Positions 26,721 to 42,775 of a DNA stretch of 51,403 nucleotides are shown piece after piece. Below the pieces are notes generated by a model that saw only the letters and a program-made list of their open reading frames with translations, was not told the origin of the DNA and searched no databases. The DNA lies in assembly GCA_000432135.1 (NCBI GenBank), contig HF990602.1, positions 1 to 51,403 on the forward strand. Reading direction: 5' to 3'. The DNA is from Firmicutes bacterium CAG:124. GTDB taxonomy: Bacteria; Bacillota; Clostridia; Oscillospirales; Oscillospiraceae. Position 1 is the stretch's first letter. The number at the start of each line of letters is the position of its first letter. The position numbers and the translations under genes are program-made.

Positions 26721-26749
26721 ATTCTACGCTATTTTCCCCGCAAACGCAA
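26721..26749 (-). promoter_or_regulatory. Host promoter for CYTH-pncB; last clear host element before the prophage
   Basis: TTGCGT-17 nt-TAGAAT. Confidence 0.65.
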
Positions 26750-26775
26750 GCGTACAGGCAAAAAGGATGGCTTTT

Positions 26776-26801
26776 TGTTGATTGTATAGTGAAGTGCGAA
26801 A
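26776..26801 (+). repeat. Candidate IS30-type terminal inverted repeat (prophage left end)
   Basis: TGTTGATTGTATAGTGAAGTGCGAAA resembles IS30-family ends and precedes an IS30-type HTH gene; partner IR not in the window. Confidence 0.55.
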
Positions 26802-26841
26802 GAGGTCGCAAGGCCTCGGACGCACTTCACTTTTTTATTTT
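26788..26841 (+). terminator. Hairpin plus U-tract just inside the prophage end
   Basis: agtgaagtgcg(26788-26798)/cgcacttcact(26821-26831), inner gaggtc-gcaa-ggcctc, then tttttatttt. Confidence 0.6.
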
Positions 26842-26862
26842 ACACGAAAGGAGGCCGGAGAA

Positions 26863-27117
26863 ATGGGCCAAAAACTCCGATACCTCGGGCCGGAAGATCG
26901 GGCGACTATTGAGCGGCTCCACAACGACCGGGCCCCGGTGGCCCTCATAGCCGAGAAAATCGGCGTCCACCCCGCGACGATCTACCGCGAATTGAGGAAC
27001 GGTTACACCGGGGCCGTAGACAAGTACGGTTTCCGCGTGTATAGCGCAAAGGTCGCGCAGATCACCGCCGAGCGGAATTTTCAGAAGTCCCGCGGCAAAC
27101 GTCAGGCGGCCCTATAA
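26863..27117 (+). CDS. Stand-alone IS30-type HTH (HTH_38-like) protein, no DDE domain
   Basis: YLGPEDRATIERL...IAEKIGVHPATIYRELRNG...YSAKVAQ; AAAGGAGG RBS; 84 aa. Confidence 0.8.
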   Translation: MGQKLRYLGPEDRATIERLHNDRAPVALIAEKIGVHPATIYRELRNGYTGAVDKYGFRVYSAKVAQITAERNFQKSRGKRQAAL

Positions 27118-27148: not shown

Positions 27149-27640
27149 ATGACGAACAAAGAATTGCAGGACGCATTAAACGGACGCCTCGAGAAATTCG
27201 ACGGAGAGAAATACTCCGGGAAAGAAGCGTCCACCCCGATTTATCACCGTTGGTATATGCACGAAATCGAGTCGGAACTCGAGTCCCGCGGCATTGAAAT
27301 TTTCCGGGCCGCCACCTGGAAAATTGTCGCTGAGATCGACGGCCCCGGGGATTTGCGCGTAGGCTACGAGCCCGTCGCCTCGGTGAATGTGGAGATCAAA
27401 AGCGACAAGCGGTATAAATTCGGCGGCCCCGGCGTGGTTAAGTCGATCCGAGTACAGTTCCGCGAGGACTTGCAGGATTTGACGATTGAGGAAACCCGGG
27501 CCTATCTCCTCAAGGCCGACCTCAAAAACCGTCTCGAATATTGGCGCAAGGAGCGGGAACGTCTCTCGGCGGAGCTCGACAAGGCGGCGGAAAAGATCGC
27601 CGATCTCACGAGTATTTCTATCGAGGAGGCGGACGTATGA
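27149..27640 (+). CDS. Phage hypothetical protein
   Basis: AAAGGAG RBS; C-terminal coiled coil. Confidence 0.75.
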   Translation: MTNKELQDALNGRLEKFDGEKYSGKEASTPIYHRWYMHEIESELESRGIEIFRAATWKIVAEIDGPGDLRVGYEPVASVNVEIKSDKRYKFGGPGVVKSIRVQFREDLQDLTIEETRAYLLKADLKNRLEYWRKERERLSAELDKAAEKIADLTSISIEEADV

Positions 27641-27855
27641 AAACGGCGGCGGAACTATGGGCCGATACGATCAAGAAACAGCCTATCGACGATCTCACCA
27701 TAAAGCACACTTGCGAGTCATTGGAAGAACTCATAAATAAGAAAACGACGGGCGTCCGCCTCGCTGGCCTCCTCTCGCGGGCCGAGGCTATTATTCTCCG
27801 TCAGCGCAAGGAAATAGCCGCCCTCCGCAAGGCGGCGGAGGTAGAGCATGAGTAA
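27637..27855 (+). CDS. Phage hypothetical protein
   Basis: GGAGG RBS, ATGA overlap, MKTAAELW... Confidence 0.7.
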   Translation: MKTAAELWADTIKKQPIDDLTIKHTCESLEELINKKTTGVRLAGLLSRAEAIILRQRKEIAALRKAAEVEHE

Positions 27856-28108
27856 GGCCCTCACTCTATCCGGCCTCATGGCCCTACTCCTCCCGAAAGA
27901 GCGCCTCTTTGTGATCCACCACCTCGGAGCCGATATTTCCGAGGCGGTGGCCGGAGGCACGGTCGAGGAGCTCGAAAGAACGCGGTGCGTCGAAGTGTGC
28001 GGAAATAACATCGTCGAGCGGATCGCCGTTGACGTGGACGACTGGCCGGACACTCCGGCCCCGATCCTCCTCGTCACCATAGGCGGAAAGGTAAAAACGC
28101 ATGAATAA
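27848..28108 (+). CDS. Phage hypothetical protein
   Basis: GGAGGT RBS; overlapping operon. Confidence 0.7.
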   Translation: MSKALTLSGLMALLLPKERLFVIHHLGADISEAVAGGTVEELERTRCVEVCGNNIVERIAVDVDDWPDTPAPILLVTIGGKVKTHE

Positions 28109-28283
28109 CGAGGTTATAAAGTGGCTTGTAGGGACTCCGGCAAGCGACATGAATTTCAAGACGAACCTAAAAAGAGCCACGGCGGCGGAAATCCGGGAAA
28201 CTCTGAAAATCATTGAGGGCCGCCGCGAGGTCAAAACAAAAGAAAAAGCTCTCCGGGCCGAGCTACGGAGAAAGGAAAAATGA
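28101..28283 (+). CDS. Phage hypothetical protein
   Basis: Tightly packed ORF, 60 aa. Confidence 0.65.
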   Translation: MNNEVIKWLVGTPASDMNFKTNLKRATAAEIRETLKIIEGRREVKTKEKALRAELRRKEK

Positions 28284-28300
28284 AAGGAGATCGCCATACC

Positions 28301-29890
28301 ATGAAAAGCCTGATTTTAACCACCCAGGACGCCCGGGAGCTGGACAAGCTCGGCGGGCTCACCATTACGAAGCCCATTAAACCCGCGCCGCGCTATATCG
28401 CGGGCGCCTCGTTCTCCCGCGACGCCGATTGTGCCGACATTTGGCACCTCGTAGGCCAGGACGGAAACCGTCTCGGAGCGGGAGACGGCGTCGCGGACGT
28501 GTTCGCCTCTCCCGTCGAGGTCTCGGACGTCGTATTTATCCGCGAGCCCTGGTATCGCCTCAAGAACCCGCAGGGCGGAGAGTCCGAGCGCGTGATCCTG
28601 GCCGCCGACTCCGTCGTAAAGCCGGAACAGGCCGCCTATAAGTGGGCCTCCCCGGTCTCTATGCCACAGGACGCCGCCCGCCGCTTTGCGCGAGTGAAAT
28701 CTATCGAGCCCGCCTACGGCGAAAACGTAACGCCCGCCTGGTTGATCGAGCTCGTGGCGATCACGAAAGAGGAGGCCACGGCGGCGGAGGCCGGGACTCC
28801 GCTCTCCACCTCGGACGACCCGGAGGAGGCCTCGAGCTATTACGCCTACGCCGGAGACATGAGCGCCGAGGATCGCGATCGCATGATCGCCAAGATCGAC
28901 GCCGACCGCGCCCGTTTGGCCGAGGTGCAAGATCGCCTCATTCGGATTGACCTCCGGCGCCGCGATCTCTCTGCCCTCTTGTTTGAGGAGCGGGACAAGG
29001 TCGATCCCAACGACCGCGACACCCTCGACGCAGAAAATACGGCTCTCGACGAGGAGCAAGGAGACCTCGCCCGCGAGGAGGCCGATCTCCGCGCCGCCCT
29101 CGAGGACGCAAAGGCCCCGGCCCCGACCGTCGAGGAACACGCCCGAGAGAAATACACCAACATTTCCGCGATCCTCTCCGGCCCGTCCGACGCGATCCCG
29201 ACCCTCGGCGACTATGACGCTCTCAAGGCGGAGGAGCAAGAGCTCGCCCGATACCTTGAGCAGTACGACAAGGCCGACGCCGCCGAACCCGATCCCGCTC
29301 CTACGGAGGAGGACGAGGAGATCGGATCGTTTAGGCTCGGAAAGTGTAAGTATTGCGGGCGTGAGTGGGGCGTAACCCTCGAGGGTGCCCGTGAGGGCGG
29401 TTTTCCGACCCAGCGAACCGCGGACGCCGCCGCTACCCGCCTTTGTGATTGCGAGGAGGCCGTCGCCAACCGGGCCCCGGTTATCGGCGTCGCTATGGCC
29501 GTCACAACGGGCGCTTGTCGGTACTGCGGTCAAATCCAGGAAGTCGGGCCCCACCCGTCCCAGGCCGCCGCAGACGACACGGCGACGGAGGTTTGCAACT
29601 GCCCGACCGCACGGCAAGAACGCCGCGTACATGAACAGGTGGCGGACGCTTGCGAGCGTGTGCAACGCCTTTTCGGCGACGACGCCGAGAGCCTCGGTTT
29701 TAAGCCGATCCCCGACGAGGCGGTCGGTCTCCTCGAGAATGTGGTCGAAATGATCGCCCGCGGCCCGATCTCCTCCGCGAGCCTGAACGTCCGCGGGCGG
29801 TGCAAGGCGAAATTTTCCGTCACAAGCAAGGGAAAAATCAAGGTCTCCCGGAGCGAAACCCGCTCTTGCGACCTTGAGGACGGAGAGTGA
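28301..29890 (+). CDS. Multidomain phage protein: ASCH-like N-terminus, acidic coiled coil, two CxYCG..CxC zinc modules
   Basis: VFIREPW...WASPVSMPQDAARRFARV; GKCKYCG..LCDC; GACRYCGQ..VCNC; RBS AAAGGAG favours ATG 28301. Confidence 0.7.
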   Translation: MKSLILTTQDARELDKLGGLTITKPIKPAPRYIAGASFSRDADCADIWHLVGQDGNRLGAGDGVADVFASPVEVSDVVFIREPWYRLKNPQGGESERVILAADSVVKPEQAAYKWASPVSMPQDAARRFARVKSIEPAYGENVTPAWLIELVAITKEEATAAEAGTPLSTSDDPEEASSYYAYAGDMSAEDRDRMIAKIDADRARLAEVQDRLIRIDLRRRDLSALLFEERDKVDPNDRDTLDAENTALDEEQGDLAREEADLRAALEDAKAPAPTVEEHAREKYTNISAILSGPSDAIPTLGDYDALKAEEQELARYLEQYDKADAAEPDPAPTEEDEEIGSFRLGKCKYCGREWGVTLEGAREGGFPTQRTADAAATRLCDCEEAVANRAPVIGVAMAVTTGACRYCGQIQEVGPHPSQAAADDTATEVCNCPTARQERRVHEQVADACERVQRLFGDDAESLGFKPIPDEAVGLLENVVEMIARGPISSASLNVRGRCKAKFSVTSKGKIKVSRSETRSCDLEDGE

Positions 29891-29898
29891 GGCGGGGT

Positions 29899-30174
29899 AT
29901 GGAAGTTACCGTAAAAATGTACCCGGAGGAATACGACCTTTTCCGCGAGTATCAGAGAGAAAAAGCCTCTCTCGAACGAGAAATGAGCGCGGATTACGAC
30001 CGCTTATGCGAAAAACATGGGAATTTGTGCAAAAAAATCCTCGACGCGACCACCGTTTCGGAGGCAACGATTTACGCCGAAGATAAGCCCGCAGAGGTAG
30101 AAAAGGTGATTTCAATAGCAGACCACGCGGCCATGATGGACGCCCGAAATCTCGCCGAAGAATGGTTTTCTTGA
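29899..30174 (+). CDS. Phage hypothetical protein
   Basis: MEVTVKMYPEEYDLFREY... Confidence 0.7.
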   Translation: MEVTVKMYPEEYDLFREYQREKASLEREMSADYDRLCEKHGNLCKKILDATTVSEATIYAEDKPAEVEKVISIADHAAMMDARNLAEEWFS

Positions 30175-30195
30175 GCTTGAGGAGGAGATAAAAGG

Positions 30196-30372
30196 ATGAA
30201 AAGCCCTGTTTATCGTTGGAAAGTATCTCACCCTGTCTATGGCTCCGTCGAGGTCACGGGCCCGCGGAAATACGAGGCCGTGATCTCTGCCGCGAGAAAG
30301 TGGGCCGCCCGCTGGACGCAGATTGCCCGCGAGTGTACCTTTGAACGCCTCGAGGAGGTGGCGGCGGAATGA
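30196..30372 (+). CDS. Phage hypothetical protein (58 aa, below the ORF-track cutoff)
   Basis: GGAGGAG RBS; MKSPVYRWKVSHPVYGSVEV...AARKWAARWTQIARECTFERL; fills the operon gap. Confidence 0.7.
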   Translation: MKSPVYRWKVSHPVYGSVEVTGPRKYEAVISAARKWAARWTQIARECTFERLEEVAAE

Positions 30373-30599
30373 TGGACAAGCCAGAGGCGGCGGAGGTCGA
30401 ACTCCCGCCACCGTGCCACGATTGCCGGAGCCTACATAAAAAATATGGCTCTTGCCTATGCGCTCGCCGACAGGCCCGTTATTGGTGGCTCTCGGCGTGG
30501 AACCTGATCCCGGGCTTGAACCGCCTCCTCCCGGCGTGGGAGTGCGATCTCCGCAAATACGAGACGGTCGAGGACATAGAAAAGGAGGAAAAGTCTTGA
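30369..30599 (+). CDS. Phage Cys-containing hypothetical protein
   Basis: GGAGGT RBS, ATGA overlap; CxxC..CxC. Confidence 0.6.
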   Translation: MMDKPEAAEVELPPPCHDCRSLHKKYGSCLCARRQARYWWLSAWNLIPGLNRLLPAWECDLRKYETVEDIEKEEKS

Positions 30600-30940
30600 G
30601 ACTCTACACGACAAAGCGCCCGCGGGAGCGTTTCAATATTAGGTGGAACCACCGCAAGAGCGCGTTTCGGCTGGCCGCCCGCGGCCTCGCCCTTTATATC
30701 TATCCGGGCCCGCTGATCGAGTGGTCGCTCGTGATCCTGGTAACTCTGACGGCATTTCGCCTGGGCGTGATTTACGCCTATCTCGAACGGGGCTATCAGG
30801 CCCGCGGCGGAGAGTATCTCCTCCTCCTGATCCCGCCTATCTACTACGCCGCGAAAAGAACGCTCCTCGACTGGATCGCAGACCTCCGGCGAGCCAAGGG
30901 TCGCCGAGAAAGGAGCGCAGAAAGTGAGTACACCCTTTAA
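30596..30940 (+). CDS. Phage membrane protein
   Basis: AGGAGG RBS, TTG start; AYLERGYQARGGEYLLLLIP. Confidence 0.65.
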   Translation: MRLYTTKRPRERFNIRWNHRKSAFRLAARGLALYIYPGPLIEWSLVILVTLTAFRLGVIYAYLERGYQARGGEYLLLLIPPIYYAAKRTLLDWIADLRRAKGRRERSAESEYTL

Positions 30941-31133
30941 GGAGTGCCCGTCTTGCGGGGCTCACCTGGACGCGGGCGAGCGGTGCGACTGCAAAGAGAC
31001 CACCGCGGCGGATCGGGCCCAGGCCAACACCGCAAGGATCACGCCTCCCGCCCGCGCCTATTATGTCGGCGTAGACCTTGCGGACGGAAAAGATCATACC
31101 GCGACGGCCCGCGGCCTCGTGGAAAACGGGTAA
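30924..31133 (+). CDS. Small phage zinc-ribbon protein
   Basis: AAGGAG RBS; CPSCGAHLDAGERCDC. Confidence 0.7.
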   Translation: MSTPFKECPSCGAHLDAGERCDCKETTAADRAQANTARITPPARAYYVGVDLADGKDHTATARGLVENG

Positions 31134-31201
31134 AAGAAAAAGCCCCCGACGCTTGACGAGAGCGTCGGGGGCGCAACCACCCGGAGGGAGATTGCCATAC
31201 C
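31132..31201 (-). ncRNA. Candidate ~65-70 nt antisense RNA upstream of the Rep-like gene
   Basis: Minus-strand promoter (31208-31236) followed by a 12-bp perfect stem (31142-31153/31161-31172) and TTTTTCTTTT. Confidence 0.65.
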
Positions 31202-31207
31202 TTTATT

Positions 31208-31236
31208 ATATTATCACCTCCGGGAAGAAAATGCAA
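31208..31236 (-). promoter_or_regulatory. Sigma-A promoter of the antisense RNA
   Basis: TTGCAT-17 nt-TAATAT with TG extension; overlapping TATAAT at 31205-31210. Confidence 0.7.
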
Positions 31237-31273
31237 GGGGCCTCGGCCCTACGCCCGAAAGGCGGTTTTTGAT

Positions 31274-32023
31274 ATGCAACGAGTGAAACGACGCACATTC
31301 TCGGGGGTCGTTTGTGAGCAGGAAGTTTATAACGTCCCGGATCGGATCAAGAGCCTTGAAAAGGCGGAGCCCCGCCCGCGCTTCAAAAATGAGGAGGAGC
31401 GGGAGCTCCACAGGATCGGCATTTCGCGGCGGAAACACGCTCGCCTCATAAATGAGAATTACGGCCCCACCTCATTATATAGCACCCTCACGCTCGACAA
31501 TGAGAGCGAAGTACATACATTCGACGAGGCCCGCCGTATTCGCGACCTCTACGTCCGCCGCCTGAAATACCATGTGCCCGACGCGAAGATCAATATTTAC
31601 ATGGGCCGCGGCAAGACGACTTTTCGCATACATTTTCACATGATTTCCGAGGGCGTCTCGGAAAAGCTGATCCGCGATCTTTGGGGCCTCGGCGACGTAT
31701 TGAGGATCGAACACCTCAGAGAGCACAATTATTATAATGGTGTAGACTATGGCCGCGATTATACGGGCCTCGCAAATTACCTTTTCGACCATTGGACGCC
31801 GGAGCAGGGCGGCCACCGCTGGAAACAGACGAAGAACCTCAAGCGCCCGGAGCGCGAGGAGCCTACCGCCGTAAAACGGAACTACTCGACGACGCGCCCT
31901 CCTCGCCCGCCGAAAGGCTATGTTTTAGTCGAGAGTAAAGAAACTCAATGGGGCTACCTCTATTTTAAGTATGTGTTGACGCCGCCGAAGCATGAGCGGC
32001 GCCGAAAACGACCGATTGAGTGA
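31274..32023 (+). CDS. HUH-endonuclease Rep-like protein (putative replication initiator)
   Basis: Motif I-like YSTLTL, motif II RIHFHMI, motif III-like GLANYL, in Rep order. Confidence 0.7.
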   Translation: MQRVKRRTFSGVVCEQEVYNVPDRIKSLEKAEPRPRFKNEEERELHRIGISRRKHARLINENYGPTSLYSTLTLDNESEVHTFDEARRIRDLYVRRLKYHVPDAKINIYMGRGKTTFRIHFHMISEGVSEKLIRDLWGLGDVLRIEHLREHNYYNGVDYGRDYTGLANYLFDHWTPEQGGHRWKQTKNLKRPEREEPTAVKRNYSTTRPPRPPKGYVLVESKETQWGYLYFKYVLTPPKHERRRKRPIE

Positions 32024-32090
32024 TCGGCCTTTTATGGCCTTGTAAATGCGTAAAGTTTGGGAACGAAGCCCAGGGAAAGGAGTGCAAGCT

Positions 32091-32495
32091 ATGAATATTA
32101 ACGAGCTCGCAAAGGAAGTCCACGAGAACGCGGTCAATCATGGGTGGTGGGAAAAGCCGCCCTCTCTCCCGGAGGCCCTTTGTCTGATCCACGGAGAACT
32201 GTCCGAGGCTCTCGAGGAATACAGAAACGGGAGTCCTCTCGTCTATGGGACGTGTGCTCTCTCGCCGGACGATTGTGATTTTGCCCTCACTTGTGAGAAC
32301 GTGGGCCACCCTGACGCCGGAGGGGAAAAGGCCGGAGCCTGCAAGCCGGAGGGGATCGCGGTCGAGCTGGCCGACGTGATCCTCCGAACCCTCGACCTCA
32401 TGGCCGCGCTCGGGGTAGACGTTGACGCCGTTGTTATGGCAAAACACCGCTACAACCTCGGACGCGAATACCGCCACGGAGGGAAACGGATATGA
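32091..32495 (+). CDS. MazG-like nucleotide pyrophosphohydrolase
   Basis: HGWW, LCLIHGELSEALEEYR, PEGIAVELADVILRTLD. Confidence 0.8.
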   Translation: MNINELAKEVHENAVNHGWWEKPPSLPEALCLIHGELSEALEEYRNGSPLVYGTCALSPDDCDFALTCENVGHPDAGGEKAGACKPEGIAVELADVILRTLDLMAALGVDVDAVVMAKHRYNLGREYRHGGKRI

Positions 32496-32955
32496 TAAAT
32501 TATTTCAAAGCCGCCGAGAGATTGCTTGCACAGCGCGGGAACCTTGAGCAAGCACTCGAGAACCTCGGGCGGCGGCGTGAGCTTGCCTCCACCCAGGCAA
32601 AGGCCGAGAGAGACAATATCAAGCCTCGGCCCTATGCCTCGAGCGGCGGTATCAACGCGCACCACCCCGCCCCCCCTGGCATGGGCCGGATAACGCCCGC
32701 CTGGAACTGGCCGAGATAAACCGGGAGATCGTAGCCACCAGGAGCACGATAGCGGAGATCGACCGCGTCCTCGCTCAACTGGACGACGCCGACGCCGAGC
32801 TCCTCCGCGCCTGGTATATCGAACACAAGAGTAAAGAGCAGATTGCGGACGAGCTCTCGTACAGCTCCAAGACGTCAATCTACGATCTCAGGAATAAGGC
32901 CGTCGCGGCCTTTGCGGTTTTGTACTATGGGGCGGGGGCTCTCGCCTCCATTTAG
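32492..32955 (+). pseudogene. ArpU/RinA-like late transcriptional activator, frameshifted (possibly an assembly error)
   Basis: N-part MINYFKAAE...; C-part in another frame LELAEINREI...LLRAWYIEHKSKEQIADELSYSSKTSIYDLRNKAV; sits just before HNH-terS. Confidence 0.7.
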
Positions 32956-33141
32956 CCGCGCCCGGAAAATTGAAAAAAGTCTGTACGGACAAGACCGCGC
33001 CCTTGTGTTACGCTGGTAACGTGAAAGAGGGCGGGAAAGCCCGTCGCCGTGCGCCCTTTTCTGCCGAGGCCTTGCGCTCTATGCGTGAGGCCGTCCGAGG
33101 CTGGGAGGGGCGCCTCTTTCGTACCATTTGGAGGCGAGCGT

Positions 33142-33441
33142 TTGAGAGAGTTTGCACGAGGTTTTTATCTCTCGAAAGAATGGCGCCGCGCTCGTGCTTA
33201 TATCGTGGCCCGGGATCATGGCCTATGCGTGAAGTGTGGGCGCCCCGGCGAGATCGTCCACCACAAAGAGCACTTGACGCCGGAGAACATCAACACGCCG
33301 GAGATCGCGCTCGGCGAGAATAATCTCGAGTTACTTTGCCGAGATTGCCACGCCCTCGCCCACGCCTCCGACCTACCCACAGATCGCGGCCTCATGTTCG
33401 ACGAGGAGGGAAACCTTGTCGAGCGTGAGCTTTTGTCATAA
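33142..33441 (+). CDS. Packaging-associated HNH endonuclease
   Basis: FYLSKEWRRAR, RDHGLCVKC, VHHK, NLELLCRDCH; GGAGG RBS, TTG start. Confidence 0.9.
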   Translation: MREFARGFYLSKEWRRARAYIVARDHGLCVKCGRPGEIVHHKEHLTPENINTPEIALGENNLELLCRDCHALAHASDLPTDRGLMFDEEGNLVERELLS

Positions 33442-33733
33442 GCACAAGAACAAGCGACGGCGGCCCGTGCAGATCGCAGACACAGGAAGTACACCTCTCC
33501 GCTACCCCCACGCCTCCCGGGTTATCCACAAGCGCCGCGGGAAATGTGGACAAAAAAGCGAAGCGGCGGAAATGAAACACGATCCGCGGCGGAGTTCCGG
33601 CCTCGAGGCCCTCCCCCCCACCTCGACACCCGGGGGATAGCCATTCCGAACCGCTTTCCACCCTCGTTTAGAACCCCCCGGGCGCATGCATAAGGGGGGG
33701 TATAGCACAAAAAGAGAGGAGGTTACACATCTA

Positions 33734-34123
33734 ATGGCAAAATCAAAAATCCCCTATGAAAGCCTCTCTATCTCCGACAAAATCGAGGTAAAAAGAAAGA
33801 AAATTCAGCGTCTTTTCCGTGATCTACCCGCCGAAAGAAAGCAATTTGCGGACGGCCTGATCTATCAATTTGCCGTTACGACCGTCACTCTCGAGCGCCT
33901 CGTCGAGGAGATCAACGCGGGCGACCTGATCGAAGATTTTAAGCAGGGCGCCCAGCAGTTACGCCGCGAAACCCCGGCCCTCAAGAGCTACAATACGACA
34001 ATCAAGTCGTTTACCTCCCTCTCGAAAAGCCTCCTCGACCTCCTCCCGGAGAAAACTCAGAAACAGGCCGGAGAGGAGCTTATGAATTTCGCCACGAAGC
34101 CCGCGGGAGCTGGTAAGCGGTGA
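33734..34123 (+). CDS. terS: Terminase small subunit
   Basis: Position before terL; RETPALKSYNTTIK; GAGGAGG RBS. Confidence 0.8.
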   Translation: MAKSKIPYESLSISDKIEVKRKKIQRLFRDLPAERKQFADGLIYQFAVTTVTLERLVEEINAGDLIEDFKQGAQQLRRETPALKSYNTTIKSFTSLSKSLLDLLPEKTQKQAGEELMNFATKPAGAGKR

Positions 34124-35772
34124 ATTACATTCTCGAGTATTGGGAGGCAATCGAGAGCGGAAAGGTAGTCACCTCCCGGCGCGTCCGTGCCGTTTACGAG
34201 CGCCTCGCCCGGGAAATCCGCGAGCCCGATCCGGCCTCTCCGTACTATTTCGACGAGGACGTCGGCGAGCGCCCGATCCTATTCGCGGAGCGGTTTTGCA
34301 AGCAGTCTCAAGGCGTGATCGGCGCCCCTCTCAAACTCGAGCTTTTCCAAAAGGCCTATATTCAAGCCCTTTTCGGTTTCCTCGAGCGGGAAACGGGTTT
34401 CCGCAGATACCGCGAGACAATGTTTCTTGTGGGCCGTAAAAACGGCAAATCGACACTCCTCGCCGCGATTGCGCTCTATATGCTGATCGCGGATTATGAG
34501 GGCGCGGCGGAAATCTACTCTGTCGCCACCAAACGAGACCAGGCGAAAAAAGTCCTTACCGAAGCTATAAACATGGTGAAGCAGTCGCCGGAGCTCCGGG
34601 CCGTCCTGAAAAAGCGGCGGAATGATCTCTATTTTCCGGCCACGGCCTCGACCTTTGAGGCCCTCGCCTCGGACTCTAACACCCTGGACGGCCTGAACTC
34701 TCACGCCGTAATCATTGACGAGCTCCACGCGATAAAGGATCGCGGCCTCTATGAGGTTATGAAACAGTCCACCTCCTCGCGTCGTCAACCGCTCGTTGTG
34801 ATGATTACCACCGCGGGCACCGTCCGCGAGAGCGTTTTCGATAGCCTCTACGAGATCGCTTGCAGAATTGCAGACGGCGAAATGAAGGAGCCGACTTTTC
34901 TCCCGATCCTCTACGAGCTGGACGCCCGCGAGGAGTGGACAGACCCGACCAAATGGCAAAAGGCAAACCCGGGCCTCGGCACGATAAAGCAGTATAAGAC
35001 CCTCGCCGACTTTGTCCAGCGGGCAAAGAACAGCCCTGACGATCTCCCCGGCGTCCTCTGCAAGGATTTCAATATCCGGGAAGTGTCGGCGGCGGTTTGG
35101 CTCTCTTTCGACGCCATCAAGAGCGACCTCCGTTTTGAGTTCCAGGACGTCTATAACACCTACGCCCTCGGCGGATGTGACCTCTCGGCCACGACCGACC
35201 TCACCGCGGCGACGCTCCTCATACGCAAGCCGGGAGACCCGATCGTCTATGTTCTGCAACAATATTTCCTCCCGGAAAAGCGCGTCGCACACCTCGAGGA
35301 GAAGAACACCAACGAGGCCCCATATCGAAAATGGGCCGACCGCGGCCTCCTCACCATCTGCCCGGGAAACCGCGTCAATTATTCCGACGTCACGGCCTGG
35401 TTTTGCCAAATGCGGGACGAGTACAAAATCGACTGTATAAAAGTCGGCTACGACCGGGCCCTCGCGGGTTATTGGGTAGACGAAATGAAATCGAACGGTT
35501 TCGACATGGAGGCCGTCGCCCAGGGCCCCTATACATGGAGTCAGCCCATGCGGGAAATGGGCGCCGCTCTCGAGGGGAAACAGGTCAATTACAACGGAAA
35601 CCCTATGCTCGTATGGTGCTTGACGAATACGGGCGTCAAAAAATCGGGCCTCAACAATATTCAGCCCGTAAAGATCACCGAAAAGCGCAGGATCGACGGT
35701 ATGGTCTCGCTCCTCAACGCCTGGACGATCTACGTCAAGTATTACGAAGATTTCATGTATAACGTGGGGTGA
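34120..35772 (+). CDS. terL: Terminase large subunit
   Basis: VGRKNGKST, IIDELHA, ITTAG, GCDLSATTDLT, RIDG. Confidence 0.95.
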   Translation: MNYILEYWEAIESGKVVTSRRVRAVYERLAREIREPDPASPYYFDEDVGERPILFAERFCKQSQGVIGAPLKLELFQKAYIQALFGFLERETGFRRYRETMFLVGRKNGKSTLLAAIALYMLIADYEGAAEIYSVATKRDQAKKVLTEAINMVKQSPELRAVLKKRRNDLYFPATASTFEALASDSNTLDGLNSHAVIIDELHAIKDRGLYEVMKQSTSSRRQPLVVMITTAGTVRESVFDSLYEIACRIADGEMKEPTFLPILYELDAREEWTDPTKWQKANPGLGTIKQYKTLADFVQRAKNSPDDLPGVLCKDFNIREVSAAVWLSFDAIKSDLRFEFQDVYNTYALGGCDLSATTDLTAATLLIRKPGDPIVYVLQQYFLPEKRVAHLEEKNTNEAPYRKWADRGLLTICPGNRVNYSDVTAWFCQMRDEYKIDCIKVGYDRALAGYWVDEMKSNGFDMEAVAQGPYTWSQPMREMGAALEGKQVNYNGNPMLVWCLTNTGVKKSGLNNIQPVKITEKRRIDGMVSLLNAWTIYVKYYEDFMYNVG

Positions 35773-35776
35773 AAAA

Positions 35777-37063
35777 ATGAACATTCGAGGCCTATTTCAA
35801 AGCATTTTCGGGAAACGCCCCACGGGCGACGGAGGCTCAAACCTCCCGGCGTTTCGGCTCCTCTCCTCTTTCGACTCGAGCTTTACGCCGTTCTCCGGGC
35901 GGGCCTGGGATATTGCGACCGTCCGCGCCGCGGTGGACGCCTGGGCGCGAAACGCGGCCAAAATCCAGCCGAGGCACATTCGGCGGGCGAGCGGGCGCCG
36001 CGAGGATATGTCCGACTATATCAACCGTCTTTTGCAAAGCAAGCCCAACCCATATATGACGGCCTACGCCTTTTATTACCGGGTGGCCGCTCAATTTGCG
36101 GTCTACAACAACGCCTTTATTCTGCCCGTATTCGACGGCGGAAAGCTCACGGCCCTTTACCCGATCAACGCCTCCCGCGTCGATCTCGTCGAGTACATGG
36201 GCCAAATGTACGCCCGCCTCACCTTTGCCACGGGCTCGGTCTATACCGTCCCATACGAGCAGATTATCCACCTCCGCCGTCACTATCTCGATAACGATAT
36301 TTTCGGCGACAACAACACGCCGTTGACGCCCACCCTCGAGACCGCGGACTCGTTCAACAAGAGTATGAGCAAGTTTGCAAAGCTCGTCTCCGTGATCCGC
36401 GGCATACTCAAGGCGAACAGCGTCACCAAACAGGAGGATTTGAACAGCCGCCGCGACGACTTCATTCGAGATAACCTCCGCATGGAGACGAACGGCGCGG
36501 GCGTGATCGTCATTGATAACAAGTACGAATATACGCCCATCACGCAAAAGGAAACGCCCCTCCCGGTCGGACAACTCGAGTTTGTGCGGCGGGAGATTTA
36601 CGACTATTTCGGCGTGAATGAGGACATCGTTCAAAACAAGGCCGACGCCGAAAAAATGGACGCCTTTTATCGCGGCCAGCTCGCCCCGTTTTATATGCAA
36701 CTGGCCCAAGGCCTCACAAATGCCCTCTTTACGGAGCGGGAGCAGGGTTTCGGAAATGAGATTGTTTGCGAGCTGGATCGTATTCAGTTTGAGACCCTCG
36801 ACAAGCGCGTCTCGGCGGCTCAGTTCTTGACAAATATCGGCGCCGTCTCCCTGGATCAAGTTCTCGATATTTTTGGTTTCCCGCCCATCGGCGGCGAGGA
36901 GGGCGCCCGCAGGGTGCAGACGTTGAACATGGTAAACGCCGATATTATCGACAAATACCAGCTCGGGAGCACGGGCCAGACGACGGAGACCGACCCTCCG
37001 CCCGCTGATCCGCCGAAAGACCCCGAGCCGACAGAGCCGAAAACAGGAAAGGAGGGGCAGTAA
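35777..37063 (+). CDS. Portal protein (HK97 family)
   Basis: PNPYMTAYAF, NNAFILP, IIHLR; position after terL. Confidence 0.92.
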   Translation: MNIRGLFQSIFGKRPTGDGGSNLPAFRLLSSFDSSFTPFSGRAWDIATVRAAVDAWARNAAKIQPRHIRRASGRREDMSDYINRLLQSKPNPYMTAYAFYYRVAAQFAVYNNAFILPVFDGGKLTALYPINASRVDLVEYMGQMYARLTFATGSVYTVPYEQIIHLRRHYLDNDIFGDNNTPLTPTLETADSFNKSMSKFAKLVSVIRGILKANSVTKQEDLNSRRDDFIRDNLRMETNGAGVIVIDNKYEYTPITQKETPLPVGQLEFVRREIYDYFGVNEDIVQNKADAEKMDAFYRGQLAPFYMQLAQGLTNALFTEREQGFGNEIVCELDRIQFETLDKRVSAAQFLTNIGAVSLDQVLDIFGFPPIGGEEGARRVQTLNMVNADIIDKYQLGSTGQTTETDPPPADPPKDPEPTEPKTGKEGQ

Positions 37064-37672
37064 ATGCCTATCAAGAAAGGCCGAGAATATAGAGCCTTGC
37101 AAGATTTCTCTCTTATTCCACGCGAGGGGGAAAACGACGCATATCGCGTCCGTGGTACGGCGGTAGTGTTCGACTCCCCGACGTGCCTTTACGAGTATGA
37201 CGGAGTCAAATATTACGAGGTGATCGACCGCCACGCCTTTGACGGGTGCGATATGTCCGACGTGATTATGAATTATAACCACGGCGGAAAGGTGGTCGCC
37301 CGCCTCCGTAATAAGACTCTGAGCCTCAATATCACCGACCGCGGCGTCGATATGGAGGCCGATCTCTCCGGCACCGCCGCGGGCCGTGATCTCTACGAGG
37401 AGATCGACGGCGGCTATATCGACAAAATGAGTTTTTCGTTCTCCGTGCGCGAGTCCAAGTATGACAACGTCACGCACACCCGGACGATTACTAAAATCCG
37501 CAAGCTGTACGACGTCTCCGCGGTGGATATTCCCGCGTATGAGGAGACGTCCCTCTCCGCACGATCCTTTTTCGAGGTGGAGCACTCGAAAGAGGTTAAG
37601 GTTTTGGAGCAAGCCGCGAGGCGGCGGAGGCTTTTAGCTCGCACTCGTACCTACTCACATACTGACGAATGA
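37064..37672 (+). CDS. Prohead protease (HK97 family)
   Basis: GTAVVFD, NYNH, KMSFSF, LYDVSAVDIPAY. Confidence 0.92.
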   Translation: MPIKKGREYRALQDFSLIPREGENDAYRVRGTAVVFDSPTCLYEYDGVKYYEVIDRHAFDGCDMSDVIMNYNHGGKVVARLRNKTLSLNITDRGVDMEADLSGTAAGRDLYEEIDGGYIDKMSFSFSVRESKYDNVTHTRTITKIRKLYDVSAVDIPAYEETSLSARSFFEVEHSKEVKVLEQAARRRRLLARTRTYSHTDE

Positions 37673-37687
37673 CAGGAGGAAAGAACC

Positions 37688-39025
37688 ATGTTTGAAAAAA
37701 GACGTAAGGAAATCGCAAAGCGCCGCGCCGAAATCCGCGCCATGCTGGCCGGAACCGACGAGGTCGATATGGACGCCCTCGAGCGTGAGCTCGACGACCT
37801 GGACAAAGAGGAGCGCGAGCTCGACCGCAGAGAGGCCGCGACCCGCCGCCTCAATGGCGGCATTGATCCCCACCAGGGCGAGCGCGGCGGCCACGGCGAC
37901 CGTGGCTCCGGCGACGAGGGCGATCCCACCCCGGGCCCCGTCAATCCCATTACTGGCCGCGGCGGCGCTCACGGCGAAGCGGCGGGCGGTGGCCTGCCTT
38001 ATGGCGTAAACGCTCGAGCGGCCCGCATGGCCGACTTGCAGGGTATCGGCGTCGGTGAGGTCGAGGCCCGCGCCCAGCGTTTCGCGACTGAGCACCGCAT
38101 GGAGATCACGACCGAGGCCCTCCACCGTTCCCTGACGCTGTCCGGGGGCAATATCGCCCAGCCGTCCCGCGTCTCCGGCATTAACCCTGGTCAGAATGTC
38201 GTTTCCGGGATCGTCGATATGGTGCGCGTCGTCCCTGCTGACGGTATGGGCGAGGACTCCGTAGCCTACGAGGTGAGCGGCGGTCAGACCGCGGCCACCA
38301 AGAAAGACGACGGCTCCGCCACCCCCGAAAGCACTCCGAACCTCAAGATCGCTAAGATCGTGCCGACCCTGGTAACGACCCTCTCCTATGTCTCCCGCAA
38401 TATCCAGCGCACGACCCCGCTCAACTATCAGGATCGCGTTTCCGCGTCCGCCCTGAACGCTCTCCGCGCCAAGACGGGAACCCTGATCGTTACGGGCAAC
38501 CCTGCCGCCACGATCCCCGAGCCCACGGGTATTCTCAAGGCCGCGGCCATCAGCGCCGGAACCGACCTCGAGATTTCCTCCATTGACGAGACCACGCTCC
38601 GCAAGATCGCTCTCAGCTACGGCGGCGCGAAGAACGTCGAGGGCGGCGGCGTCCTCTTGCTGAACAAGACCGACCTGATCGCGTTCGGTGACGTCCGCGG
38701 CACCAACGAGAAAAAGGCGGTCTATGAGATCGAGTTCTCCGAGGAAAGCACCACCACGGGCACCATCAAGGACGGCGGCCTCGCCGTGAAGTTCTGCATT
38801 GTGGACGATCTTCCCGCGCTGTCTGCCTCCGGCACCGCCGCGGCGTCCTACTGCATGGCATACGGCAAGCCCTACGCCTATCAGCTCGATTTGTTCGGCC
38901 CCTACTCCGTGGAAGTCTCCCGCGATTACAAATTCGCCGAGGGTCTCCTCGCTGTCATGGGCGAGGCCATGATCGGCGGTAACGTCGTCACCGAAAACGG
39001 CTTTATCCGCGTAAAAAAAGCATAG
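37688..39025 (+). CDS. Major capsid protein (HK97 fold, N-terminal scaffold domain)
   Basis: Coiled-coil N-terminus, position after protease, C-terminal VEVSRDYKF...GGNVV..GF. Confidence 0.9.
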   Translation: MFEKRRKEIAKRRAEIRAMLAGTDEVDMDALERELDDLDKEERELDRREAATRRLNGGIDPHQGERGGHGDRGSGDEGDPTPGPVNPITGRGGAHGEAAGGGLPYGVNARAARMADLQGIGVGEVEARAQRFATEHRMEITTEALHRSLTLSGGNIAQPSRVSGINPGQNVVSGIVDMVRVVPADGMGEDSVAYEVSGGQTAATKKDDGSATPESTPNLKIAKIVPTLVTTLSYVSRNIQRTTPLNYQDRVSASALNALRAKTGTLIVTGNPAATIPEPTGILKAAAISAGTDLEISSIDETTLRKIALSYGGAKNVEGGGVLLLNKTDLIAFGDVRGTNEKKAVYEIEFSEESTTTGTIKDGGLAVKFCIVDDLPALSASGTAAASYCMAYGKPYAYQLDLFGPYSVEVSRDYKFAEGLLAVMGEAMIGGNVVTENGFIRVKKA

Positions 39026-39285
39026 TTCCATCGGCCAAGACTGAGACGCCCGCGGCGAACCCTGCCGCGGGCCCGGTCGCCAGCGGTACGGAGGTAGAGC
39101 TCTCCTCTGCGACCGATGGAGCGAGGATTTATTACACGCTGGACAAGTCCAACCCGACGCAGTCGTCCACCCTCTACGAGAACAAGATCACCATTACGGA
39201 GGCCGTGACGATCAAGGCGAAAGCCTACGCGGACGGGCATACCGCCTCGGACGTCCTGACGGCGGAGTACACGATCTCGGGTTAA
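39013..39285 (+). CDS. -1 frameshift extension of the capsid: Ig-like Fn3-associated/CHB_HEX_C domain
   Basis: Slippery A AAA AAA at 39013-39019; start-less -1 frame encodes TPAANPAAG..VELSSATDGARIYYTLDKSNPT...TIKAKA...SDVLTAEYTI. Confidence 0.8.
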   Translation, partial: KKSIVPSAKTETPAANPAAGPVASGTEVELSSATDGARIYYTLDKSNPTQSSTLYENKITITEAVTIKAKAYADGHTASDVLTAEYTISG

Positions 39286-39295
39286 GGAGGGCGCC

Positions 39296-39631
39296 ATGAG
39301 CGAGCAAGCGAACACAACCGCCGCGGCGGAGGTCTCCTCGGAGTACCTCTCCGATATTCGTCTCCGGGTGCGCTCGTCCGTCGATAAGCTGGACGGGGAG
39401 ATTAAAGACCTGATCCTCGCCGCCCGCGCCGATCTCGTGCGCGGCGGCGTCCTCCCGGCCAGGGCGGCGGACGAGGACGATCCGCTCGTAAAGCAAGCGA
39501 TCTCGACCTATGTCAAGGCGGAGTTTGGCCTCGACAACGACGACGCGGATAAATACCGGGCCTCGTTCAGGAGTCAAAAGATTGCGCTCTCTATGGCCTC
39601 GGAGTATATCGAACCCACGGAGGAGGTGTAG
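39296..39631 (+). CDS. Head-tail connector (gp6-like)
   Basis: LDGEIKDLILAARADL, DPLVKQAI..YVKAEFG. Confidence 0.85.
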   Translation: MSEQANTTAAAEVSSEYLSDIRLRVRSSVDKLDGEIKDLILAARADLVRGGVLPARAADEDDPLVKQAISTYVKAEFGLDNDDADKYRASFRSQKIALSMASEYIEPTEEV

Positions 39632-39636
39632 CTCTC

Positions 39637-39981
39637 GTGTATTGGCGAGATATTGCGACCCTCGTCGGCGTGAAAAAAACGGTCAACGAAAACGGCTACA
39701 AGGTCGAGACCGAAGCACGGCGGGAGGTTTTCGTCAACAAGAAATCCGCGACCCGATCCGAGTTCTACGCCGCCAAACAGGCCGGAGACAAAATCGCCCT
39801 CGTCCTCGAGGTGCGAGGATCGGACTACGAGGGCGAGACCCGGATCGAATACGGCGGAAACCCCTATGAGGTCGTGAGGACGTACACCCGAGCGGGAGAG
39901 GTTATCGAGCTTAATTGCAAAGAGGCCCCGAAGCCCGCCAAGGGCGCCCAGGACGGCGGCGGAGAGGGGGCGGCGGTATGA
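39637..39981 (+). CDS. Head closure / head-tail adaptor
   Basis: SATRSEFYAAKQAG, YEVVRTY. Confidence 0.85.
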   Translation: MYWRDIATLVGVKKTVNENGYKVETEARREVFVNKKSATRSEFYAAKQAGDKIALVLEVRGSDYEGETRIEYGGNPYEVVRTYTRAGEVIELNCKEAPKPAKGAQDGGGEGAAV

Positions 39982-40310
39982 CGGTCAATAGCCTACTGAA
40001 AGCCGCTCTCGAGCCCGTGGCGCCCGTCGAGGCCGACACCTACGAGGGCACCGAGCCGACCTATATCACATTCGGGTACATATCCACCCCGACCGATTTC
40101 GGCGACGACGAGCCGGAGCATGAGCTTTTCTCGATCTCCGTTCACCTATTCGCCCCGACAGGCGAGGACACTATCGAGAAGCGGCGGGCCATTAAAAAAG
40201 CCCTGGCCGCGGCGGGCACTACCTGGCCGAGCTATACCAACGCCTCGGACAAAGAGGGTCAGCACCACGTTTTCGAGTGTCAGCTCGCCCGGGGAGTGGG
40301 GGCGGAATAA
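39978..40310 (+). CDS. Putative tail terminator/completion protein
   Basis: Position; YEGTEPTYITF, FGDD, HHVFEC. Confidence 0.7.
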   Translation: MTVNSLLKAALEPVAPVEADTYEGTEPTYITFGYISTPTDFGDDEPEHELFSISVHLFAPTGEDTIEKRRAIKKALAAAGTTWPSYTNASDKEGQHHVFECQLARGVGAE

Positions 40311-40729
40311 TGGGAACCATGTCCGTTTCCGGCCTCGACGACCTGATCGGCGATCTCGACGAACTGGCCCGCCTCCCGGACTCCGTAACGGATCAAATGC
40401 TCAACGCAGAGGCCGACGTAATCGAGGCCGCCCAGCGGTCGGAGGCGTCGAGAATGTGGAAAGGCCCGTATTATACGGGCACGACCGCCGCCTCGATCAA
40501 AAAGGGCAAGATCAAGCGGACGGGGCTCGACAAGTCGATCACCGTTGCCCCGCAGGGCCACAATAAGCGCGGCACCCGTAACGCGGAGGTCGCCTTTGTG
40601 AATGAGTTCGGCAAAAGAGGCCAACCGGGCCGCCCCGCCCTCAAAACCGCGAACGAGCGGAAAGAACAAGAAGCCGTTGCGGCGGGCGAGAAAGTCTATC
40701 ACGCCTACCTGGACGGCAAAAAACTTTAA
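40310..40729 (+). CDS. HK97 gp10-like neck protein
   Basis: VSGLDDL, TGTTAASI, AFVNEFG. Confidence 0.8.
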   Translation: MGTMSVSGLDDLIGDLDELARLPDSVTDQMLNAEADVIEAAQRSEASRMWKGPYYTGTTAASIKKGKIKRTGLDKSITVAPQGHNKRGTRNAEVAFVNEFGKRGQPGRPALKTANERKEQEAVAAGEKVYHAYLDGKKL

Positions 40730-40750
40730 TTCTCAATAGGAGGTTTTACT

Positions 40751-41320
40751 ATGGCAAGTTTCGGAGCTAAGTATCCGCATTTCTCCAAGATCAAGACAGA
40801 GCCGGACGACGCCCTCCCCACCTACGAGGGCCCGGTCAATATTGGCCGCCTCGTCAAGGCTGATCTCACCGTAAACCTTGCCTCCGGCAAGCTCTACGCC
40901 GACGACGAGCTCGCCGAGAGCGTGGACGAGTTCTCGTCCGGCTCGGTGGCTATGGAGACCGACGACATGACGGACGACGTCGCGGCGGAGGTCTACGGAT
41001 GTACCGTCGAGGAGAAGAAAGTCCACTACAAGGCGGGCGACTCCGCGCCGCTGGGCGGTCTCGCCTATTACAAAGTCCTTATGCGCAAGGGTGTGAAGCT
41101 CTTTAAGGGCTATTTCTATCCCAGGGTTAAGGCCGTGCTCGGAAATGATAACGCCGCCACCAAGGCGGACTCTATCACGTTCGGTACGAACTCCACGACC
41201 TTTACGGTTTTCCGTTGCAACTCCGACGATTGGAGAATTACGGAGGAGCTCACCACCGAGGCCGCGGCGAAAGCCTGGGTAAAGGAACAGCTCAAGGAAA
41301 CCGTCACACCGGGCGGCTAA
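40751..41320 (+). CDS. Major tail protein
   Basis: LYADDELAES, TKADSITF; position. Confidence 0.85.
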   Translation: MASFGAKYPHFSKIKTEPDDALPTYEGPVNIGRLVKADLTVNLASGKLYADDELAESVDEFSSGSVAMETDDMTDDVAAEVYGCTVEEKKVHYKAGDSAPLGGLAYYKVLMRKGVKLFKGYFYPRVKAVLGNDNAATKADSITFGTNSTTFTVFRCNSDDWRITEELTTEAAAKAWVKEQLKETVTPGG

Positions 41321-41330
41321 AGCTGACGCA

Positions 41331-41363
41331 GGGGGGCGGGGATTTCCCTCGCCTCCCTATTTT
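41331..41363 (+). terminator. Terminator after the major tail gene
   Basis: ggggggcgggg-atttc-cctcgcctccc then tatttt. Confidence 0.55.
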
Positions 41364-41383
41364 CACACTTTGGAGGGCATACC

Positions 41384-41776
41384 ATGAAAGCCGTAAAAAT
41401 CACCCTCGCCGGGAGAACGCAATACCTCGCCTATACCGGGGAGGCCATGTTTCAACTGCAAGAAAAATTCGGCACCGCGGCGGAACTCCTCGGGGCCATT
41501 GGCAAAAACACGCGGGACGGCCTCTCCGTAGCTTGTGAGGCCGCGGCCATTTTGGCCGAGCAAGGCGAGCTCGCCCGCCGACACCTGGGCTATGACAAGG
41601 GGCCGATCATTGAGGCGGCCACGATCCGGGCCACTATTACCCCGAGCGAGATCGCGGCCCTCAAGCTCGCGATCCCCGCCGCTATGGAGCTCGGCTATGG
41701 CCGGGAGGTCGTCGAAGAAAACGACGAGATCGACCTCGGCCTCGCCGAGCTGAACGCGCAAAAAAAAACGACGTGA
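41384..41776 (+). CDS. Tail assembly chaperone (lambda gpG analogue)
   Basis: Between major tail and TMP genes; ends at an A9 slippery run. Confidence 0.8.
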   Translation: MKAVKITLAGRTQYLAYTGEAMFQLQEKFGTAAELLGAIGKNTRDGLSVACEAAAILAEQGELARRHLGYDKGPIIEAATIRATITPSEIAALKLAIPAAMELGYGREVVEENDEIDLGLAELNAQKKTT

Positions 41777-41916
41777 CACGCGCCCACTATGGGCGGATCG
41801 CGGCGTTATGTGGCGTCTCCCGGAAAGAGGCGCTCCTCATGCCTCCGGGGGAATTATTCGATATGTGGGAGCTATGGCTCCGGGCCCGCGGCAAAAAGGC
41901 CACTCAGGACGATTAA
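41760..41916 (+). CDS. -1 frameshift extension of the tail chaperone (gpGT analogue)
   Basis: A9 at 41760-41768; -1 frame NDVTRAHYGRIAALCGVSRKEALLMPPGELFDMWELW...DD*. Confidence 0.8.
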
Positions 41917-41959
41917 AAGGGGCCGCCGCGTGACAGCAACGGCCCCTCCTCGGGAGTTT

Positions 41960-42727: not shown

Positions 42728-42775
42728 ACTGAACACCTCCAACATAAAGCGAAAATATTTGCATTTCATAGGGCA

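Follow-up and report, generated by a model that had tools for sequence, protein, structure and literature searches.

Tailed prophages that carry an IS30-family transposase rather than a tyrosine or serine integrase were defined in 2025 as the IScream class (Wirbel, Hickey et al., Nature, PMC12823448; preprint 10.1101/2025.05.09.652943), for which the main text shows circles and particles, counts 1,780 candidate IS30-transposase phages in one catalogue, and describes these viruses as abundant gut residents. The same main text, which draws a parallel to composite transposons, calls the inward-facing IS30 gene of such phages truncated or "deprecated". Lagaffe, a phage described earlier (Cornuault et al., Microbiome 2018, PMC5883640), is reported to use an IS30-family transposase as its integrase and to be flanked by direct repeats that surprised its authors. 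Here, we present a prophage that begins in the 51,403-nt stretch of Firmicutes bacterium CAG:124 DNA analyzed in this study ("the window", i.e., positions 1-51403 of contig C91 in a genome of 145 contigs) and continues beyond it, with the contig extending to 66,300 in the same numbering. This tailed, intact-looking prophage with siphovirus-type tail genes (C91 26776-58951; 32,176 bp) belongs to the published IScream/Lagaffe class. Its left end in the window is probably that of an IS30-type prophage organized and mobilized as a single oversized element, with the regulation proposed below. A first-pass annotation of the window from its letters alone had mentioned IS30-bounded "IScream" gut prophages as a reported class, and the main text of PMC12823448 confirms that this class exists.

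What characterizes the class was also found here, i.e., a tailed-phage gene set without a tyrosine or serine integrase, a full-length IS30 transposase facing outward at one end, an inward-facing truncated IS30-like gene without the catalytic domain at the other, mobility with the same phage in varying host contexts, and the existence of a circular form; nothing that we found places the element outside it. The difference lies in the inward gene, which is called deprecated there and looks selected here. With Lagaffe, which yields virions according to the text of PMC5883640, the prophage shares the IS30-family integrase, direct-repeat flanks, and a reverse transcriptase, whereas a comparison by description sets the 48-kb myovirus-type genome of Lagaffe and its Faecalibacterium, Blautia, and related hosts apart from the 32-kb siphovirus-type element studied here, the relatives of which lie in Oscillospiraceae. 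The main texts of PMC12823448 and its preprint (with supplements outside the search) contain no 15-bp duplication, 2-bp spacer, junction promoter, hairpin, or selection on a gene limited to the helix-turn-helix (HTH) domain, and they mention no inverted repeats, target duplications, promoters, terminators, or repressors of IScream phages and no role for the small gene; further literature search added nothing. Similarly, no description of how insertion or lysogeny of IS30-transposase phages is controlled was found in the texts of the class papers.

The transposition of IS30 itself proceeds via joined-end intermediates, and a junction promoter, Pjunc, has been described for it in the text of PMC9333248. 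The prophage has in common with E. coli IS30 the transposase family, the spacing of the catalytic DDE (aspartate-aspartate-glutamate) residues, the left tip TGT(A/T)GATT, and a candidate promoter at the joined ends. However, E. coli IS30 measures 1,221 bp (against 32,176 bp here), makes 2-bp target duplications according to the text of PMC9333248 (against 15 bp here), has its transposase gene beside the left end (31 kb away here), and lacks a separate HTH-only gene, while the right tip of the prophage mismatches its left tip. Longer target duplications of 16, 23, 25, and 26 bp are given in the text of PMC3317919 for IS1630, an IS30-type element of Mycoplasma fermentans, though this is a plain insertion sequence of 1.2-1.4 kb with variable duplication length, compared to 15 bp in three insertions here.

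Both boundaries of the prophage are exact. The first-pass annotation had placed the left one at 26776, and empty sites, independent flanks, and contigs of public sequencing runs all agree with this position. In three relatives of the same genus (G004, G014, and G015), genes for a CYTH-domain protein and a SpoIIE-type protein are adjacent with one copy of AAAAGGATGGCTTTT, and their flanks are 87-89% identical to the host flanks of the prophage. Viral contigs encoding a 100% identical HTH-only protein (L023 and L024) and genome loci with the same or a related left end (L115-L121) diverge immediately upstream of TGTTGATT. The contigs of four public runs, which were available as contigs only and showed boundaries without end-to-end joints, stop matching at 26776 (X1, X5, and X9) or 26773 (X2) and continue into loose ends that differ. 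On the other side, viral contigs L036-L038, with a transposase that is 98% identical, diverge directly after TTGACAAGGGGCC, which ends in GGGGCC.

The prophage is flanked by two copies of AAAAGGATGGCTTTT (Table 1). In two further genomes with both ends on one contig, the corresponding 15-bp duplications read AGAGACGTGAAAAAA (G044) and GGATTAGCGCGCGGA (G046); three insertions thus have a duplication of 15 bp, while a fourth, a second prophage of the CAG:124 genome that lies on contig C83, has 16 bp (or 15+1). An attachment-site (att) reading of the direct repeat, as expected for site-specific integration, was rejected because its sequence differs at every insertion site, and we therefore take it as a target duplication. 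The same phage has evidently inserted at many different sites and, as judged from these flanks, duplicates 15 bp of its target. This is not the 2-3 bp expected of the IS30 family, and the duplication of about 2 bp foreseen in the first-pass annotation did not materialize; 2 bp is instead the distance between the ends in the circular form described below. The C83 prophage has the same build and lies in the same genome (C83 10622-59406, loci L017 and L018; ca. 48.8 kb), with a transposase that is 54% identical, a 16-bp flanking repeat, the same hairpin and T run, and a host -35 element at 27 nt from its tip.

The transposase at the far end of the element (343 aa) combines HTH_38 with the rve integrase core, reaches 231 bits (cut-off 80) with the NCBIfam IS30 equivalog NF033563, and matches phrog_4646 at E 2.7e-124. 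Its catalytic residues D188, D249, and E283 do not vary across an alignment of 14 transposases, and the 33 residues between the last two correspond to the D..D(33)E spacing of the IS30 family. Host DNA resumes 44 nt after the stop codon of the transposase gene, and a SpoIIE-type gene comes next. Searches for tyrosine and serine recombinases with PF00589 and PF00239 gave no match on C91, whereas other contigs of the genome have 17 and 7, respectively (no separate search was made with PF07508), and the transposase appears to be the only recombinase on the contig. The first-pass annotation had noted neither an integrase nor a CI repressor at the left end and had proposed that the phage is one giant IS30-like element with a full DDE transposase at the right end (then unseen); the succession of transposase, right inverted repeat, and host DNA bears this proposal out.

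The terminal repeats, which measure about 20-30 bp in the IS30 family, match each other only in part. Their 20-nt cores, TTGTATAGTGAAGTGCGAAA on the left and the complement of TTTCGCAAATCACTTGACAA on the right, match at 16 of 20 positions; the matching right-end repeat that had been anticipated thus holds for the cores and fails for the outermost 6 nt. No further copy of the left core exists on C91 at up to five mismatches, and none lies internally upstream of the transposase. The first-pass annotation had compared the 26-mer at 26776 with the left end of E. coli IS30, and its 15 of 26 matches in register were confirmed against the left inverted repeat of IS30A in E. coli K-12 (NC_000913.3, locus L142). 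Shifting the comparison by offsets from -6 to +6 gives 5-11 matches, and among 26-mers taken at every seventh base of the window (mean 6.2, standard deviation 2.1), only the one at 26776 reaches 15.

Several contigs carry the two ends joined to each other. In viral contig L035, the transposase gene is followed by GGGGCC-AC-TGTTGA, i.e., by the right end, 2 bp, and then TGTTGATTGTATAG. The constant ends of two other lineages are separated by exactly 2 variable nt in several contigs (AA, AG, AA, AT, and AT in five of the six contigs L040-L045, with L040 deviating, and AT, CA, AA, AG, AG, and GT in L053-56, L062, and L070), and integrated copies of those lineages (L039 and L066; L059-L061) diverge directly after the constant right end. 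For the L025/L027 lineage, the right end was sought on the 71-kb record G041, where neither the repeat pattern nor a transposase was found, and the spacer in L028 is therefore assigned by analogy. The junction spacer of IS30 itself measures 2 bp. By sequence comparison, there is thus a form whose right end connects to its left end via 2 variable bp, as in IS30 circles, and the circle junction for which the first-pass annotation had suggested to look is present as sequence in L035 and in contigs of the two other lineages.

Joining the ends brings the TTGACA at the end of the right core (58939-58944) into range of a TATAGT in the left repeat. The L035 junction reads TTGACA-18-TATAGT, which agrees with the promoter consensus at 11 of 12 positions, and that of L053 reads TTGACA-17-TAACAT (10/12); the joined ends of E. 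coli IS30A give TTGACA-17-TAGATT, which corresponds to Pjunc. A promoter scan of the integrated sequence between 26500 and 27200 found no promoter-like site. We flagged 27 of 81 loci in a crude test for such junction promoters and judged five of these to be chance hits (L036, L037, L060, L078, and L090). Among the 22 others, all except L093 have a hexamer that matches TATAAT at no fewer than (i.e., at least) four of six positions, 17-18 nt from TTGAC(A/T), with intervening sequences that vary by lineage. We consider it somewhat more probable than the opposite that the joined ends build a strong promoter, with its -35 element on the right end and its -10 element on the left end at 17-18 nt, that would read into the HTH-only gene and the phage genome.

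Directly behind the -10 hexamer lies the 11-mer that the first-pass annotation had correctly noted twice in inverted orientation (Table 1). The two copies form the outer stem of a hairpin with a folding energy of -32.6 kcal/mol (z -6.4). Such a hairpin abuts a T run in 12 of 14 lineages, and the cutting rule shortened it in the other two, where a T run lies within the loop. Its position directly after the -10 hexamer is shared by every lineage examined, as is the start of the stem in the repeat core of the respective lineage, while stem sequence and loop length vary. For example, the inner stem is GGTC/GACC in L116 and GCTC/GAGC in L119, i.e., a compensating double change, with loops of GNRA type. 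We therefore regard the hairpin as a putative intrinsic terminator that would insulate the left end.

The first phage gene encodes an 84-aa protein with HTH_38, the N-terminal HTH of IS30-type transposases, as its sole Pfam match (E 2.7e-11), just as the first-pass annotation had described it. No NCBIfam model matched this HTH-only protein, and the 82-position phage family phrog_11420 matches it from end to end (E 8.7e-21). It is colinear with the first ca. 80 residues of IS30-type transposases and 36% identical to the first 47 residues of the transposase encoded on C91. An AlphaFold model (pLDDT, the predicted local distance difference test score, of 85) shows an HTH of three helices that leads into a short wing and then a long helix at the C-terminus. 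A fold search of the PDB with this model returned nothing at E <= 0.001, the best hits being winged-HTH repressors of a generic kind with E values from 0.016 upward, and a predicted complex of transposase and HTH-only protein, run without controls, scored 0.01.

Several lines of evidence argue that this gene is maintained. The HTH-only family comprises 43 protein clusters, mostly of 83-84 aa, that diverge to 65% identity and are conserved up to the C-terminus. The ratio of non-synonymous to synonymous substitution rates (dN/dS) is 0.136-0.288 in all pairs with dS >0.2, and the gene in the window differs from the L023 and L024 copies by four synonymous and no non-synonymous changes. A small HTH_38 open reading frame (ORF) was found in 28 of the 49 loci with at least 600 nt past the transposase, including 24/24 loci classed as junctions. 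In a tree of 77 alignment columns, one branch splits 19 HTH-only proteins from 18 transposase N-termini (97 in the Shimodaira-Hasegawa-like approximate likelihood ratio test, SH-aLRT) with mirrored sub-clades on both sides, which fits one old duplication followed by joint descent of the HTH-only gene and the transposase. The gene thus looks like a conserved working part under purifying selection rather than a decaying remnant. The label "remnant" from the first-pass annotation is consequently abandoned for a gene that is kept, forms a clade of its own, and follows every junction examined, whereas the regulatory role also proposed there stays plausible and is strengthened by the selection on the gene.

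The host DNA at the insertion sites follows a pattern, too. Upstream of the prophage lies a CYTH-domain gene on the minus strand with a promoter that reads leftward, the -35 element of which starts 26 nt from the prophage tip; its end at 26749, as previously annotated, holds. We scored the best outward-reading promoter-like site within 120 nt of the tip and found that, in seven of nine independent left flanks of this lineage and that of C83, the -35 element begins 25-27 nt from the tip with a spacer of 17-18 (the window, L115, L116, L117, L119, L121, and C83). L023 and L024 lack this offset, as do two flanks that belong to a more distant lineage. Among three loose ends of the public runs, two show the hexamer at the expected position within the 30 letters visible. 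The right repeat itself contains TTGACA.

The element can be summarized as a left inverted repeat, an insulating hairpin, and the HTH-only gene, followed by ca. 30 kb of phage genes on one strand and finally a control region, the transposase, and the right inverted repeat. The transposase likely releases the prophage as a circle, by copying or by cutting, and the ends joined in this circle would be the substrate for the next insertion. Phage Mu replicates by transposition and packages host flanks, whereas the phages considered here circularize. Integration would take the junction promoter apart, and the hairpin would stop transcripts entering from the host or, across the junction, from the transposase gene. 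Transcripts of the junction promoter itself should escape termination because they would start within or near the end of the 5' arm so that the stem cannot form. As a kept paralogue of the end-binding domain of the transposase, the HTH-only protein may bind the cores, damp the junction promoter, and tune or compete with the transposase, a role for and against which we see about equal chances. The cores abut both hexamers, and a protein bound to them would therefore shut the junction promoter and occupy the substrate of the transposase. Stand-alone DNA-binding paralogues encoded at the left end are known from IS1 (InsA), IS911 (OrfA), and Mu (repressor/Ner vs. MuA), where they act at the ends in a competitor- or repressor-like way. 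The HTH-only protein has no sequence relationship to any of these, and we infer its function here.

A more tentative idea, which we think possible though rather less than likely, is lysogeny by promoter disassembly. The phage genome would be driven only while the ends are joined, integration would silence it, and excision by the separately controlled transposase operon at the right end would re-arm it. If so, the left-end terminator would shield the integrated phage from host transcription, and the HTH-only protein as the first product would sit on the cores and decide between re-insertion and lytic growth. Similarly, a domain that reads TTGACA would choose sites beside divergent promoters, hence the 25-27-nt offset.

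A number of observations weigh against the main interpretation or parts of it. The outermost 6 nt of the two ends mismatch (TGTTGA vs. GGCCCC read inward, 1/6), an unusual trait in a DDE element. The promoters were called by agreement with the consensus, hexamers with at least 4/6 agreement are common in A+T-rich ends, and the L093 junction has extra bases and no such -10 hexamer at 17-18 nt. Our terminator scan, limited to loops of 3-8 nt, did not flag the hairpin with its longer loop. Two pairs of HTH-only genes at low divergence have a dN/dS of 0.41-0.49 on 9-10 changes, the tree rests on columns aligned with a profile of the HTH-only family itself, and the 92-aa HTH-only gene of the C83 prophage is the third gene, ca. 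1.45 kb from the end, so that its position as first gene is not universal. Cognate pairs of HTH-only protein and transposase are no more alike overall than non-cognate ones (0.277 vs. 0.271) and do not differ from them outside the recognition helix; their greater similarity within this helix (0.504 vs. 0.454, with 187 of 10,000 permutations as high) is a small signal in columns picked after inspection of the alignment. Finally, a stop codon in the XRE-type gene at the right end means that this particular prophage may not be normally regulated.

Several other explanations of the left end must be weighed. One of them, in line with the first-pass annotation, treats the two 11-mers as a two-site operator to which the HTH-only protein would bind as a dimer, i.e., as a Cro-like switch at the DNA level. 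The 5' arm indeed falls on the repeat core, the expected binding site of an IS30-type HTH, and the modelled winged HTH with its long helix has dimeric MntR/MarR-type repressors as its best, if weak, fold matches. However, the spacing of the arms ranges from ca. 15 to ca. 45 nt across lineages, and the stems run past the shared core with lineage-specific, fully compensated sequence. Because of this variable spacing, the compensating double change and GNRA-type loops of the inner stems, which are properties of transcript structure, and a T run that always adjoins the 3' arm, we favor the RNA hairpin and consider the operator unlikely, though both readings are compatible at the 5' arm. Another explanation would make the HTH-only ORF the functionless, decaying second IS30 copy of a composite transposon at the left border. 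It draws on the inward IS30 genes in the main text of PMC12823448, which span 183-4,175 nt and are truncated or fused without a catalytic domain, and on the colinearity of the HTH-only protein with the start of the transposase. A decaying gene is hard to reconcile with a length held at 83-84 aa down to 65% identity, a dN/dS of 0.14-0.29, the presence of the gene after all 24 junctions examined, the single branch in the tree that implies one old duplication and not repeated decay, and the lack of an internal left core upstream of the right-end transposase. We thus see hardly any room for a remnant.

The main rival to the restraining role that we prefer for the HTH-only protein is that of a positive accessory factor that helps the transposase by marking or bending the left end for synapsis, by setting the direction (excision or insertion) like Xis, or by reading the target. 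An end-specific helper is conceivable given that the two tips differ, the fixed distance of 25-27 nt from a host -35 element in seven of nine flanks suggests that something reads a TTGACA-like word, and the gene is universally retained beside the left end. Sequence data do not separate activation from inhibition. The transposase has an HTH_38 of its own and needs no second reader of the shared core, and the known stand-alone N-terminal paralogues such as InsA of IS1 or the Mu repressor are negative regulators. We regard a helper as a real, if minor, possibility. It seems improbable, by comparison, that the HTH-only protein is a general early regulator, i.e., a Cro/Ner-like factor that acts at other phage promoters and not at the element ends. 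It is the first product of a one-directional genome in this lineage, and the right-end promoter has an inverted repeat between its hexamers. However, the sequence of this repeat (ATACTGC/GCAGTAT) does not resemble the core of the element ends, the gene for an XRE-type regulator sits directly beside that promoter, and the weak cognate signal sits in the recognition helix that the HTH-only protein shares with the transposase.

Between the two ends, the prophage is organized like a tailed phage (Table 1). Every ORF with a family match from 26863 to beyond the window lies on the plus strand and is of tailed-phage type, and the AT skew is positive throughout the phage body, which also encodes tail proteins, with a reverse transcriptase and an endolysin beyond the window. 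A run of 25 N lies at C91 51404-51428, directly after the last base of the window. The reverse transcriptase is part of a diversity-generating retroelement with a 141-nt repeat, one copy of which is at the 3' end of a tail-protein gene while the other starts the reverse-transcriptase gene. The two copies disagree at 12 positions, each of which is an A in the second copy, the template.

The right end is arranged in the order of endolysin, terminator-like site, XRE-type gene, strong promoter, two small membrane-peptide ORFs, a gene of the ribbon-helix-helix (RHH) type, and transposase. The stop codon in the XRE-type gene is a glutamine codon in five relatives (L035-L038 and L130) with an intact 86-aa protein; the prophage may thus have a dead regulator, although a variant of the assembly or the strain at this base could also account for the difference. 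The RHH gene lies directly upstream of the transposase both here and in a distant lineage (L028 183-458). We dropped it as a candidate for a universal transposase partner since only 25 of 74 loci gave a hit in a crude iterative search. At another locus (L121 / G047 C7 ca. 7400-10351), only ca. 2.5 kb separate an HTH-only gene, the left end of which is normal, from two IS30-type transposase fragments; this may represent a collapsed or deleted element.

Table 1. Features of the prophage and its host flanks in C91 numbering, which is that of the window (positions 1-51403) and continues beyond it.
Feature	Coordinates	Strand	Details
Host CYTH promoter	26721..26749	-	-10 TAGAAT 26721-26726; -35 TTGCGT 26744-26749; spacer 17
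Left copy of 15-bp target-site duplication	26761..26775	.	AAAAGGATGGCTTTT; direct-repeat comparison
Left terminal inverted repeat	26776..26801	+	tip TGTTGA (6 nt) and 20-nt core TTGTATAGTGAAGTGCGAAA
Candidate -10 hexamer TATAGT	26785..26790	+	would gain a -35 (right-end TTGACA) only when ends are joined
Terminator-like hairpin	26788..26843	+	arms 26788-26798 (AGTGAAGTGCG) and 26821-26831 (its reverse complement); inner stem with GCAA loop; T run from 26831
HTH-only gene	26863..27117	+	84 aa; HTH_38, wing, and C-terminal helix; ribosome-binding site 26846-26854
Phage body	27149..51403	+	all family-matched genes on plus strand; also tail proteins
Replication initiator	31274-32023	+	
Terminase large subunit	34120-35772	+	
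Portal	35777-37063	+	
Protease	37064-37672	+	
Major head	37688-39025	+	
Major tail	40751-41320	+	
Tape measure	42848-46216	+	
Diversity-generating retroelement	52793-54414		L003 1794-3415; beyond window
Endolysin	56037-56867		beyond window
XRE-type HTH gene	56996-57256		L003 5997-6257; in-frame TAA 57077-57079; beyond window
Right-end promoter	57291-57319		TTGACA-17-TATTAT, with TG; beyond window
RHH_1 (CopG-type) gene	57622-57813		L003 6623-6814; beyond window
IS30-family DDE transposase	57876-58907	+	outward-reading; beyond window
Right inverted repeat	58926-58951		core TTTCGCAAATCACTTGACAA; tip GGGGCC; last phage base 58951; beyond window
Right copy of target duplication	58952-58966		AAAAGGATGGCTTTT; beyond window

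The regulatory model proposed here is testable, and experiments in cultured lysogens would be both concrete and cheap. For the IScream/Lagaffe class, our analysis recovers an anatomy of exact ends, a 15-bp target duplication, a 2-bp spacer between joined ends, a putative promoter formed by these, a hairpin that would insulate the left end, and a selected paralogue that presumably binds the ends. It also changes how the left-end gene of these phages is read, i.e., from a decayed copy of the transposase gene to a probable regulator.

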